Positions 20,893 through 42,788 of a stretch of DNA of 55,428 nt are shown here, one piece after another; position 1 is the stretch's first letter; the number at the start of each line of letters is the position of its first letter. This stretch comes from Eubacteriales bacterium (lineage in GTDB: Bacteria > Bacillota > Clostridia > Oscillospirales > CAG-272), in NCBI GenBank assembly GCA_045537015.1, contig JAZSOQ010000007.1, positions 1 to 55,428 of the forward strand, given 5' to 3'. The notes under the pieces are model-generated. The model ran no database searches. It worked only from the letters and a program-made list of their open reading frames with translations, and was not told the origin of the DNA. Both the position numbers and the translations under genes were made by a program.

Positions 20893-22518
20893 ATGATTCT
20901 GATAAATAAAAATATGGCCCTTGAAGCTTTCCGAATACTCGAAAAAGCGGCGGCAAGGCTGATGGCTGTACGCTCTGTGACTATGGGAGAGGGTTTCGCC
21001 GTTTCGCTTGAGATCGATACCTCGCTTTCGGACGAGCGTTACGTAATTAAATCGGGAAACGTCGGATGTGAACTCCGCGCGGCGGACGGGCTTGGGCTAT
21101 TTGCCGCGTTCGGCAGATTCTTGCGCCTCTCGCGTTTTGACGGCAATGGTGGATTCCTTCCTTTTGAAGGTGAGATTGATTTCACGCCCGCAAAAAAGCT
21201 GCGCGGTATGTATTTTGCCACGCATTTTAATAATTTCTATCATTCCGCGCCGATCGAGAAGGTCTGCGAGGTAGTTGAAGACCTTGCGTTGCGCGGCTGC
21301 AACAGCCTGCTTGTTTGGTTCGATATGCACCATTTCGAGTCGATGGAAGATGCGGGCGCGCAGAGCCTTGTCAAGCGCCTGCGTGAGATTCTCGGATATG
21401 CAAATAAGATAGGTATCGGCGGATCGCTGACGATGCTTTCAAACGAGGCTTTTGCCAATTCTCCCGCCGAGCTCCGAGCCGAATGGCAGGTTCAGAACGG
21501 CTATCACGCTGAGCCCGACTCGCATTATCACGTCGAAATTTGCCCCTCGAAGGAGGGCGGAATTGAAGAGATCTTGCGCGCGCGCCGTGCAATGCTTGAA
21601 TCCTTTGCTGATCTCAAGATCGATTACGTCGTCTATTGGCCATACGATCAGGGTGGATGCACCTGCAAGGACTGCGCTCCGTGGGGAGCTAATGGCTTTT
21701 TGAAACTTTTGCCGCATTTCAAGGCGCTCATAAAAGAGATTATGCCGAAAACAGAGGTCATTGTTTCGGCGTGGTATTTCGACCGTTTCACAAGCGGTGA
21801 ATGGGAGAACTTCACGGAGAGGCTCGGCGACGAGATGTTCGCGGACGTGCCTTATATTCTTTCCTTCTTTGCAAACGGCGAGCTCCCGCCCGTCCTGCAA
21901 GAGAAGGGAATTCCCGAGGGCATCAAGTTCATCGAATTTCCCGAGATCAGCATGTGGAGCTGTTCGCCTTGGGGGGGCTACGGTGCGAGTCACTTGGCTG
22001 AATTTCTTGAGCGCAACCACGGCACAGGGAAGAGTATTTACAGCGGCGCGTATCCCTATTCCGAGGGTATCTTTGAGGATGCCAACAAGTTCATCGAGCT
22101 CGCGCTATATTCGGGCGAGCACGAAAACGCATTCGATGCTCTGCGCGATTACGTGCGGTTTGAGTTTTGCACCGATGACGAGGAGCTTTTTGAAGCGCTC
22201 AGACTTACCGAGCGTTCACTCTCCCGCAAGCGTTCGCGCCCGGGGGACTACATCAAGGTCACGATGAACGACACAAGCGAGGTCGAACACGTTCGCGAGG
22301 TGTTTGAAAAATACAACTCGATTTTGCCCGAAAATATTACGTCATCGCGCAACTTCAGACTCTTCTACCTCCGCGCGCTGATCGACTCCGAGATCGCGCG
22401 TAACGACGGTTTCTCCATCCGCTCCGAGCTTTGCCAAAAGGCAATGCGGGAGATCGATGAGATCTATTTTGCTAATGAAAAAACCTGTCCTTGGGTGCGT
22501 CCCGCGACAGGCAAGTAA
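20893..22518 (+). CDS. Hypothetical protein, possible glycoside-hydrolase-like barrel
   Basis: Long ORF with host-like codon use; RGMYFATHF..N.L..WFD, DQGGCTCKDC; family not identified. Confidence 0.6.
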   Translation: MILINKNMALEAFRILEKAAARLMAVRSVTMGEGFAVSLEIDTSLSDERYVIKSGNVGCELRAADGLGLFAAFGRFLRLSRFDGNGGFLPFEGEIDFTPAKKLRGMYFATHFNNFYHSAPIEKVCEVVEDLALRGCNSLLVWFDMHHFESMEDAGAQSLVKRLREILGYANKIGIGGSLTMLSNEAFANSPAELRAEWQVQNGYHAEPDSHYHVEICPSKEGGIEEILRARRAMLESFADLKIDYVVYWPYDQGGCTCKDCAPWGANGFLKLLPHFKALIKEIMPKTEVIVSAWYFDRFTSGEWENFTERLGDEMFADVPYILSFFANGELPPVLQEKGIPEGIKFIEFPEISMWSCSPWGGYGASHLAEFLERNHGTGKSIYSGAYPYSEGIFEDANKFIELALYSGEHENAFDALRDYVRFEFCTDDEELFEALRLTERSLSRKRSRPGDYIKVTMNDTSEVEHVREVFEKYNSILPENITSSRNFRLFYLRALIDSEIARNDGFSIRSELCQKAMREIDEIYFANEKTCPWVRPATGK

Positions 22519-22535
22519 GCAATTCTGCTTACTTG

Positions 22536-22670
22536 CAACGAAATATTTCTCCTTGGGGAGAAATGTGAAATTTTGCTGCGCAAAGTGAAATTCGCGCTTT
22601 GCGCGAGTGAAATATTCCGCCGAGGCGGAATGTGAAGGTAGAAATTTGCTGAAGCAAATTTCAATTTAAT
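22536..22670 (+). repeat. Hairpin-array element copy A (GTGAAAT linkers)
   Basis: Five short palindromes joined by GTGAAAT-type linkers; homologous to reverse complement of 39740-39874. Confidence 0.85.
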
Positions 22671-22698
22671 ATTAATTGCTGAGTAACGAGGTAAATGT

Positions 22699-25352: not shown

Positions 25353-25448
25353 ATAAACAATGTTTCTTTGCCGCACATTGTGAAGCGTGCTTGTATAAAC
25401 AATGTTTCTTTGCCGTACATTGTGAAACGTGTTTGCAAAAACAGTGTT
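25353..25448 (-). ncRNA. cptI: Type III antitoxin RNA (CptI-like), 2.3 x 42-nt direct repeats
   Basis: Units start at 25353, 25395 and 25437 (partial): ataaacaatgtttctttgccgYacattgtgaaRcgtgYttgY. Confidence 0.8.
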
Positions 25449-25480
25449 GATGCAGCACACCGTAAAGCTGTTACAAGTAT

Positions 25481-25509
25481 ATTATACACTATAATTTTGT
25501 TTTTTTCAA
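25481..25509 (-). promoter_or_regulatory. Promoter of type III TA locus
   Basis: TTGAAA-17-TATAAT on minus strand, just upstream of the repeats. Confidence 0.7.
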
Positions 25510-25601
25510 TAGATTTTTGAAAAAATATAGATGGATTTTTAGTTTTACGGTTCGGTAATAGTATATGCAGAAGTGATTTGGTTGTGCGCGGTAATTAAAT
25601 C

Positions 25602-25976
25602 CGGGATTCTGAACCCACGGTTCGCGCATAATGATGTGCGATAGTTGAATTGGGCGGTAGCGCGAACCTATCGTGTTGCAGATGAATATGTACTTCTGTA
25701 CTCAGTTGGCATCTTCGCAACACGATGAGGGTTCGAATTATCCCGAACTCGACGGCATGAAAAAACCGAGCACCGCGAAGCGGTACTCGGTTTTTTCATG
25801 GCGGAGAGAGAGGGATTCTGAACCCGAAGTTCGCGCATTATGCAGTACGATAGTTTAATTGGGTGGTCGCGCGAACTCTATTATTGTTTCGCTTTGCGAA
25901 ACAATAAGGGGTTCATCATCAATATCGCTCCGGTATAAAGAAAAGGTTGTAACCGAAGGTTACAACCTTTTCTTTA
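25602..25976 (-). repeat. Two diverged tRNA-linked repeat units
   Basis: gggattctgaaccc..gttcgcgcat..cgatagtt.aattggg.ggt.gcgcgaac occurs twice; 20-bp copy of the tRNA 3' end at 25799-25818. Confidence 0.8.
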
Positions 25977-26068
25977 TGGCGGAGAGAGAGGGATTCGAAC
26001 CCTCGTTGGGGTATTAGCCCAAACACGATTTCCAGTCGTGCGCCTTAGACCAGCTCAGCCATCTCTCC
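25977..26068 (-). tRNA. tRNA-Ser(GGA)
   Basis: GGAGAGATGGCTGAGCTGGTCTAAGGCGCACGACT-GGA-AATCGTG, long variable arm, GGTTCGAATCCC...CGCCA. Confidence 0.97.
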
Positions 26069-26204
26069 ATGGCAGCTCGCGCTGACTAATATATTATATC
26101 ACAACCAAAAGAAAAAATCAAGACCTTTTTAGAATTTTTTTGAGATTTTTTAGAGTTTTTCTTGATTTTTTTGATATTATATGCTATAATAGGTTCAAAC
26201 AAAA

Positions 26205-26400
26205 GAATAAACACGGTTCATCTCGGGCGTTTTTGCCCGGTTGTCGGATGCTTTGCGTTCGGGGATAAGGAAACGGCGGTGAAAATCCGCGGCAACAGCC
26301 ATTACCGTTAAAGTCGGAATGCTTATCGGACTGTGACACGCGAAAAAACTCTTGGGCAATTTGGGAGAGTCGGGCGAATGTGAGATAGGGCAGGCTATCT
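26205..26400 (+). promoter_or_regulatory. Cobalamin riboswitch (variant); boundaries approximate
   Basis: AAGGAAA-CGGCGGTGAAAATCCGC-GGCAACAGCCATTACCGT core resembles the B12 element; terminator and B12-uptake-type genes follow. Confidence 0.7.
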
Positions 26401-39409: not shown

Positions 39410-39548
39410 TGGTCGCAGTGATATTCGCGCGATGCGCGAGTGATATTTCACCTTCGGTGAAGTGATATATCCGCTTTGCGTATGTGATATATTTCGCTGA
39501 AGGCGAAATGTTAAGGTGAATTTCCGCCCCGACCGGGCGGAAATTTTC
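39410..39548 (+). repeat. Hairpin-array element copy B (GTGATAT linkers)
   Basis: Four GTGATAT linkers each followed by a short palindrome, then GTTAAGGT and a closing hairpin. Confidence 0.8.
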
Positions 39549-39597
39549 TTTTTTATTTTGATATTACTTTTCTTCCGGTTTATTCGGGTGAAAAATA

Positions 39598-39626
39598 TTG
39601 ACATTGCTATTTTTTTATGGTAAAAT
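39598..39626 (+). promoter_or_regulatory. Sigma-A promoter upstream of ECF sigma gene
   Basis: TTGACA-17-TAAAAT with TGn. Confidence 0.65.
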
Positions 39627-39739
39627 CAAGTTATATTGCACAAAAGCGGTGGTCTCTTTTTGTGCAATCATACAAAAACGAAAAAAGCCTGCGATGAAAC
39701 GGAAGATTTTTGGTACTTAATAGGTGAAAGGCAATTTTA

Positions 39740-39874
39740 ATTAAATGAAATTTGCCTTGGCGAATTTCTACCTTAACATTCCGCTTCAGCGGAATATTTC
39801 ACTCGCGCGAAGCGCGAATTTCACTTTTGCGAAGCAAAAATTTCACATTTCGCCATCGGCGAAATATTTCGTTG
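39740..39874 (-). repeat. Hairpin-array element copy C (GTGAAAT linkers)
   Basis: Reverse complement aligns unit for unit with 22536-22670. Confidence 0.85.
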
Positions 39875-39893
39875 GCGAAGCCCGAAGGGAGGT

Positions 39894-42638: not shown

Positions 42639-42742
42639 CATTATTCATTATTCATCAGCGAAGCGGCTTCATTATTCATTATTCATCAATAATCAAAATT
42701 GGTCAAATGAATAATGAATGATGAATAATGAATAATGAATAA
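42639..42742. repeat. Inverted heptamer tandem repeats (TTCATTA)n ... (AATGAAT)n
   Basis: cattattcattattcatc twice, then aatgaataatgaatgatgaataatgaataatgaataa. Confidence 0.85.
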
Positions 42743-42788
42743 TTATGGGACAGAGACGCCGAACATGCGGTGTTTCTGTCCCATAATT

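Follow-up and report, generated by a model that had tools for sequence, protein, structure and literature searches.

Gut-1 hairpin arrays of a gut Clostridia genome as a high-copy, insertion-polymorphic repeat linked to PF05635 four-helix-bundle genes

The hairpin arrays in the window, the 55,428-nt stretch of contig JAZSOQ010000007.1 analysed here, are members of the known Gut-1 family and not of a new one. In the source genome (G000; other G numbers denote relatives or congeners, and C numbers denote contigs), Gut-1 behaves as a high-copy, insertion-polymorphic intergenic DNA repeat rather than as a single sRNA gene. Among the families tested, PF05635, a family of four-helix-bundle proteins, alone tracks the arrays. 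Judging from sequence comparison, we think it rather probable that the copies in the window are gene-less arms of a PF05635 cassette family, in which the heptamers joining the hairpins would serve as protein-binding words.

Anatomy and family identity of the window arrays

As read from the sequence, copies A, B and C each consist of small perfect hairpins in an array, with one constant heptamer as the joint. Copy A (22536..22677, + strand) begins with CAACGAAAT, followed by four hairpins (22545-22564, 22572-22584, 22592-22606 and 22614-22631, + strand) with three GTGAAAT linkers between them (starting at 22565, 22585 and 22607, + strand), then GTGAAGGTA, a terminal 9-bp hairpin (22641-22662, + strand) and an AT-rich tail. 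Three of the 9 pairs of this terminal hairpin are G-C, and together with its tail AATTTAATAT it passes a loose terminator scan only. Copy C (39733..39878, - strand), likewise a GTGAAAT variant, shows the identical hairpin order as a reverse complement and also begins with CAACGAAAT. The letters of A and C quoted in the sequence-only reading match the window exactly, and its observation that the two copies differ in loops or by compensatory changes holds save for one C-A mismatch in the last hairpin of C. Copy B (39410..39563, + strand) is a GTGATAT-linker variant that starts about 6 nt past the stop codon of an upstream ORF that Pfam identifies as a GFO/IDH/MocA oxidoreductase gene and ends in a 12-bp hairpin with a T-run (39518-39546; 12 pairs plus TCTTTTTTAT), which is terminator-like by scan. 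The heptamer alone is not enriched, bare GTGAAAT giving 13 matches in the window against 10.1 expected; the spaced GTGAAAT triple occurs 14 times in the G000 genome, compared with 0 for the reversed pattern.

A cmscan search against Rfam 15 identified copies A, C and B as Gut-1 (RF01706) with 64.2, 60.6 and 54.2 bits, respectively, over the full model (1-77); the match in A covers 22536-22618, and an nhmmer profile of the whole element gave this copy 118 bits over 22529-22680. All three lie above the RF01706 gathering score of 50 bits. The sequence-only reading had called the element undescribed and had named a match to an Rfam family beforehand as refuting, so this claim falls. Gut-1 was rated in Weinberg 2010 (PMC2864571, Genome Biol 11:R31) as a confident RNA that is not cis-regulatory, occurs in "human gut only" and is likely non-coding, and the seed alignment in the supplement of that paper displays hairpins with GUGAAAU/GUGAUAU joints, the same build as here. 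The Rfam entry, of gut metagenome origin, likewise has three hairpins joined by GUGAAAU/GUGAUAU. Its 77-position model comprises the first three hairpins only, and the element described here, of about 145 nt, adds a fourth hairpin, the GTTAAGGT word, the terminal hairpin and the tail beyond it. Full-text searches of the open literature found Gut-1 named only in Weinberg 2010 and in one methods paper. Rfam files the family as Gene; sRNA, whereas we find a repeat of 56-160 copies that is insertion-polymorphic and tied to PF05635 genes; in our reading, the type label is wrong for the Gut-1 copies of the window.

The window also holds features that are unrelated to the arrays. These are a Fusobacteriales-1 RNA (25357-25474, - strand; Rfam, 84 bits), a tRNA (25980-26068, - strand; Rfam) and an AdoCbl-II riboswitch (26256-26332, + strand; Rfam). 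Near them (25357-26332) we noticed a 65-nt direct repeat (25603/25812) and two 37-nt inverted repeats.

Stem conservation and the structured-RNA alternative

Folded as single-stranded DNA, copy A reaches -34.6 kcal/mol, compared with -18.65 +/- 3.14 kcal/mol for shuffles (z = -5.08). RNAalifold, applied to 20 G000 copies, predicted four of the five hairpins and found two-sided changes in 20/31 pairs. In the same 20 copies, 97.6% of 613 cells were paired compared with 80.8% in shuffles, and sliding the partners by 1-3 columns reduced pairing to 32-51%. Two-sided changes occurred in 103 cells compared with 29.1 in shuffles, a value that 0/500 shuffles reached, while one-sided changes numbered only 2. 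The proposed covariation between copies is therefore supported for the hairpins on the G000 set.

Strong covariation would also suit a structured RNA, either an sRNA or 3'-UTR module that gives the upstream mRNA stability or a terminator, or one whose repeated single-stranded GUGAAAU titrates an RNA-binding protein. Such an explanation is in line with the rating of Gut-1 as a confident, not cis-regulatory RNA (PMC2864571), with the terminator-like hairpin and T-run of copy B and with the position of tandem-sense copies, whose 5' end lies at a median of 20 nt past the upstream stop. The stems themselves argue against it. Among 572 stem pairs from 92 hairpins of three subfamilies, 552 were Watson-Crick, 2 were G-T, 6 were A-C and 12 were other, a count from which the GAATGAT and CGATAT families (103/118 and 47/90 spacers failing the hairpin filter, linkers poorly defined) and 9 further spacers of the three families used (dropped by the same filter) were excluded. 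An RNA under selection would tolerate G-U on its sense strand, and wobble is here as rare as its mirror A-C. The near-absence of wobble fits palindromes that are maintained or generated as DNA, or that are needed on both strands, better than RNA.

The genomic position of the copies points in the same direction. With gene calls that were crude (longest ORFs of at least 110 aa, elements masked, so that small genes were missed and some contexts mislabelled), 58 copies had both flanks called, 21 of them tandem-sense, 13 tandem-antisense, 17 divergent and 7 convergent; 37/58 thus lie outside the simple sense-after-gene position, and these calls revealed no rule for the transcription strand. For comparison, the intergenic spaces of G000 comprise 1111 tandem, 281 divergent and 278 convergent cases.

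Copy C is antisense in a leader: it faces away from the downstream gene for an ECF-type sigma factor (start 39894; Pfam Sigma70_r2/r4) and lies directly 5' of the GGGAGG ribosome-binding site of this gene. A promoter-like site between B and C (39598..39626, + strand; TTGACA, 17 nt, TAAAAT, with TG; 11/12 consensus matches) would, to go by its position, direct transcription across the reverse complement of C and on into the sigma-factor gene. The B-C spacer with this site is kept in G049, a genome without B and C, although the site is a predicted one and its retention no proof of function. No promoter-like site was found 5' of copy A on its own strand. Together with 56-160 copies per genome and their absence from close relatives, these findings lead us to regard a structured RNA as unlikely.

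Copy number and insertion polymorphism

The G000 assembly (2.34 Mb in 156 contigs, 77% complete, G+C 0.497) contains 56 covariance-model matches to RF01706 at E <= 0.001, 25 of which are above the cut-off. The nhmmer profile of the whole element (~145 nt) returned 98, then 149 and then 160 matches, 77 on the + and 83 on the - strand, which amount to 17.3 kb. Further copies beyond A, B and C, for which the sequence-only reading had suggested a scan, are many, in G000 as well as in relatives: a Gut-1 match was present in 28/41 relatives searched, and the number per genome ranged from 0 to 73 among 24 congeners. Copies are mostly intergenic by the crude ORF calls in G000 and sometimes alternate in orientation, as at C3:12844-13238. 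Their linkers define GTGAAAT, GTGATAT, GCTAAAT and ATGAT-type subfamilies. The linker word is nearly always uniform within a copy; one copy on C53 mixes two types along its length. Heptamer arrays of at least three exact units, counted irrespective of family, number 297 in G000 (221 intergenic) compared with 5 in a shuffle. A pattern scan of species-representative genomes found at least 123 stretches; among the matches listed, 60/80 rows were labelled Clostridia, mostly gut MAGs, and the other 20/80 (Bacteroidales, Akkermansia, cyanobacteria, archaea and others) may be due to chance. Many copies are located no more than 300 nt from a contig end. Repeats of this kind break assemblies, and they will be mis-annotated as sRNA genes.

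Empty orthologous sites, which had been suggested as a check, were found for copies A, C113 and C28 and for others; these three are exact insertions that are missing in all or most of the relatives examined at the respective site. Locus A is occupied in G000, G017 and G005 and empty in G045, G043, G049, G001, G047, G048 and G009, including the two relatives with the closest flanks (91% and 89%). At the empty locus about 170 nt are missing, and the ribosome-binding site of the following gene, which encodes a GDSL-family hydrolase (Pfam), overlaps the stop codon of the preceding one. Insertion into such tight operon junctions changes stop codons and the spacing of ribosome-binding sites. Comparison with the empty sites places the inserted DNA at ~22517 to ~22687, so that the span of 22536-22670 originally given for A described a real array but was too short. 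For the C113 copy, 4/4 relatives are empty, and for the C28 copy, which lies within the T-run of a terminator, 4/4 resolved junctions are empty with flanks up to 95% identical. Of the relatives compared, only G043 also has the C108 copy. G043 has both B and C, G049 and G042 have neither, and copy C is also absent in G001, G047, G048, G021 and G004.

A further 11-bp stem, hairpin 0 (22511..22536, + strand; sequence reading), precedes copy A. The end of the upstream ORF, with its last codons and the TAA stop (22516-22518), forms the 5' arm, whereas the 3' arm is part of the inserted DNA. The hairpin is absent at the seven empty orthologous sites, and G017 and G005 retain it with compensatory changes. 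We considered whether this hairpin is built from target sequence. At A and C113, 6-7 nt of the gene end are reused; elsewhere, the hairpin is repeat-internal, and we rejected the idea. The overlap with the gene end is microhomology at best.

At five junctions (A, C, C113, C28 and C108) we found no target-site duplication, no terminal inverted repeat and no common target word; possible target duplications at C28 (TTTT) and at C (TTC) are of insufficient length to be counted. No known transposition chemistry is therefore indicated. We also discarded an identity as a MITE, which is defined by terminal inverted repeats together with a target-site duplication of fixed length, since none of the five junctions has these features. 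As a separate observation, copies of the GCTAAAT subfamily (C87, C53, C155, C23, C147, C107, C131 and C92) are bordered on either side by conserved flanks of about 50 nt, which are inverted repeats of one another; from their sequence, GCTAAAT copies may be carried in a larger MITE-like unit. Two further places on C10 (4180-4391 and 6451-6664, 2.27 kb apart) have GAATGAT-type and ATATCGT-type arrays tail to tail round one terminal hairpin. The words differ, so these pairs are not two arms of one cassette. Their arrangement suggests that hairpins or terminators already in place serve as landing sites for new copies.

Parts of this pattern could also arise if the arrays were functionless palindromic filler, in which slippage expands heptamers, template switching perfects quasi-palindromes, recombination spreads the copies and the link with PF05635 comes down to shared landing spots. 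The number of units varies at the C locus, with four hairpins in G000 and G043 compared with one in G017, and the place of B is taken in six congeners by a terminator, tandem heptamers of other words and then a B-like terminal hairpin. Two-sided changes appear without intermediates, a copy with two linker types exists (C53), and mismatches build up in older orthologous copies. The A copies of G017 and G005 have accumulated single stem mismatches, and old copies may therefore be under no constraint. What this explanation leaves unaccounted for are clean insertions of 150-170 nt at new sites with ~90% identity between copies, as well as the relation to PF05635 genes described below.

PF05635 genes as the candidate partner

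The proteins in question are TIGR02436 four-helix bundles (95 bits) and belong to PF05635, an Avd-like family named "23S rRNA intervening-sequence protein"; their closest solved structure is 2RLD (E 2.9e-30), an entry with five chains. G000 has eight PF05635 genes, and all eight are flanked by heptamer chains of at least three units. The arrays of the C50 and C85 genes are tandem AGTGGAC, inverted on both sides, whereas those of the C57 (AATGAAT) and C34 (AAGTGAA) genes are tandem, as are the AGTGAAA arrays of the C139 gene, located 3' of a tRNA gene. Arrays with hairpins accompany the genes on C46 (GCTAAAT, 3' of a tRNA gene), C155 (GYGATAT / ATATCGT) and C59 (AATGATG, both sides).

Across the genus, the family is present in 26/38 genomes. 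We surveyed the flanks of 76 PF05635 ORFs from 75 loci, with about 25 more matches left out. A chain of at least three units was found at 74/76 of these ORFs compared with 132/400 random G000 ORFs, and at least four units upstream at 62/76 compared with 57/400. Gut-1 and PF05635 counts correlate over 25 congeners (Spearman 0.85), a value that overstates the link because the genomes counted are related MAGs and thus not independent of one another. The association weakens outside the genus: 14/24 PF05635 genes had at least four units in the flank compared with 9/43 neighbouring ORFs, a control that is contaminated by the same arrays.

Protein and array also correspond in type. All 44 hairpin-type arrays accompany proteins of a single clade in the protein tree (support 98/89), and the remaining 32 are all tandem, although the hairpin-type clade is one evolutionary event, which limits this match as evidence. 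GTGAAAT/ATGAAAT arrays go with one protein clade of six (support 100/99), and Rfam-scored Gut-1 matches lie 170-250 nt upstream of PF05635 genes of the GTGAAAT clade. The full form, seen at G006:C2 and G024:C31, consists of a tRNA, a terminator, CAACGAAAT or a close variant (C/AAACGAAAT-type start), three hairpins joined by GTGAAAT, an ATTTCAC arm in inverted orientation, a promoter-like site (TTGAAA...TATAAT) and the gene. Copies A and C share the 5' start, the linker word and the unit build of this gene-bearing arm, and the same CAACGAAAT start leads us to interpret them as gene-less left arms. In G002:C7 (73553-74588), three equal-scoring Gut-1 matches with a 250-nt period stand directly 5' of an ATGAAAT-clade PF05635 gene, as if the whole arm had been duplicated in tandem.

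Both findings, the match between protein clade and heptamer or array type and the excess of chains at PF05635 genes, are left unexplained by functionless filler, an account that we consider fairly unlikely on balance. Arrays and cassettes may nevertheless share no more than landing places, namely gene ends, terminators and tRNA genes. The sequence-only reading had found no cognate enzyme in the window; this was borne out, and a gene of the matching clade was not found in the 77% complete G000 assembly either, where the best match is 61% identical and lies on C46, with GCTAAAT arrays. The copies of the window are consequently without a demonstrated partner in G000. Similarly, no clade gene was found in G022 (83% complete), which has 48 GTGAAAT triples.

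Other heptamer arrays belong to the surroundings of this system. Tandem GTCCACT-type heptamers at the contig start (149..219, + strand) are part of the wider heptamer-array system and have no Gut-1 match; the same words make up the arm located downstream of the PF05635 genes on C50 and C85, and any gene would lie past the contig end. An inverted tandem ATTATTC / AATGAAT pair (42639..42743, + strand), located just 3' of a terminator with no gene between or after, is a gene-less relative of the arrays 5' of the C57 PF05635 gene, and many such pairs exist genome-wide. The C50 gene (C50:18379-18900, L200) lies with its inverted AGTGGAC arrays between two ORFs whose ends resemble, by eye, peptide deformylase and methionyl-tRNA formyltransferase; on that by-eye identity, the cassette would have inserted into a conserved operon.

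REP/BIME elements, and REPINs with their RAYTs, are high-copy intergenic palindromes that occur in both orientations and in clusters, with copy numbers varying between relatives. The Gut-1 arrays resemble them as high-copy extragenic palindromes (160 nhmmer matches in both orientations), and the suggestion of a REP/BIME-like dispersed intergenic repeat that keeps structure rather than sequence is upheld by copy number, orientation and two-sided changes. The unit differs, as a REP is one imperfect palindrome and Gut-1 combines several different small palindromes with a constant heptamer. Dispersal, palindromes and occasional alternation could further suggest a single-stranded-DNA hairpin substrate moved by a RAYT or an IS200-like HUH (Y1) transposase, and one Y1_Tnp gene is indeed present in G000. 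However, Gut-1 repeats flank no cognate Y1 transposase: this sole gene, on C109, has its own, different hairpins and no adjoining heptamer arrays. No PF01797 match exists in 7/11 genomes with at least 29 Gut-1 matches, G034 has five PF01797 matches but one Gut-1 match, and Gut-1 and Y1 counts give a Spearman coefficient of 0.31. The proposed role as HUH/RAYT substrate is thus not supported, and we hold movement by such an enzyme to be very improbable. The C109 gene (560-1260, L031) is itself a low-G+C IS200-like Y1 transposase gene, which has its own flanking hairpins and is unrelated to the arrays, and it is inserted 3' of what resembles the ATP synthase epsilon gene. BOX of Streptococcus pneumoniae is an intergenic repeat built of modules, with internal units that vary in number and strong predicted folding but without a transposase of its own; compared by description, the Gut-1 arrays are like BOX in these respects. 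Neither a constant 7-nt linker nor a partner gene is known from BOX.

Avd is a nucleic-acid-handling accessory protein of diversity-generating retroelements. The arrays might also be imagined as a retro-mobile element copied by a reverse transcriptase together with an Avd-like protein, as in those retroelements. An RVT_1 gene adjoins a weak PF05635 match in G013, and PF05635 resembles Avd (PDB 4DWL), which has a related four-helix-bundle fold and family (PMC10053308). In contrast to Avd systems, which possess a reverse transcriptase, an RVT_1 search detected none that accompanies the arrays: the many-copy genomes G000, G024, G022 and G006 have no RVT_1 match, and Gut-1 and reverse transcriptase counts correlate negatively (Spearman -0.29). 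We give this explanation hardly any credence. Of the candidate genes near which the sequence-only reading had suggested looking for copies, the four-helix-bundle genes stand, whereas HUH transposases and reverse transcriptases drop out. The REP-like intuition was right and the RAYT idea wrong, and the four-helix-bundle partner is the best lead. The idea of multivalent protein binding likewise survives, with the PF05635 protein, on sequence grounds, as its candidate.

The closest parallel to the cassettes is found in 23S rRNA intervening sequences, in which an S23p/PF05635 ORF lies between complementary terminal inverted repeats and which are excised by RNase III (PMC4990558). Protein family and plan are shared, the ORF being enclosed by complementary arms that are able to form a stem: the PF05635 genes on C50, C85, C34 and C59 of G000 have inverted arrays on both sides, as intervening-sequence arms do. 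In contrast to those sequences, which lie in rRNA, the cassettes lie between protein or tRNA genes and their arms are repeated heptamers with or without hairpins. The window copies lack an ORF, unlike the ORF-bearing intervening sequences.

Each element repeats one heptamer about five times, separated by small perfect palindromes and closed by a longer hairpin, and the arrays flanking PF05635 genes are built in this way too. If the copies in the window are gene-less arms of PF05635 cassettes, as we favour, the palindromes would fold out on a single strand, either of DNA in replication or transfer or of RNA. The heptamers would thereby become neighbours, as they are in the tandem arrays that other clades have without interruption. 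Hairpin length varies from ~13 to 20 nt, and the linkers are thus out of helical phase on duplex DNA. A cognate four-helix-bundle protein would read the heptamers, each protein clade having its own word, and one shared reader protein per word would explain the uniform linkers within an array. This protein is probably pentameric, to go by the chain count of a single PDB entry (2RLD) and by Avd, and about five words per arm would suit a pentamer. Binding of the heptamers by the protein, a dependence of gene-less arms on it and the means by which copies spread are what the model would add to the observed distribution.

Put in its most specific form, each PF05635 clade would have a 7-nt word of its own, which the protein as a pentamer would read in groups of five on single-stranded nucleic acid with the palindromes folded out, and Gut-1 arrays would be gene-less satellites that depend on the protein in trans. 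We advance this version tentatively and lean towards doubting it. If true, it would describe a class of mobile or selfish elements without any known transposase and would provide a first function for two orphans at once, an RNA motif and a protein family. Rfam has carried Gut-1 since 2010 as an sRNA with no assigned role, and PF05635/TIGR02436 proteins are common and unexplained; no paper linking the two was found in the full-text literature, with subscription journals outside its coverage. If the arrays are binding words, Gut-1, the rRNA intervening-sequence protein and the heptamer repeats of gut Clostridia would become one testable system.
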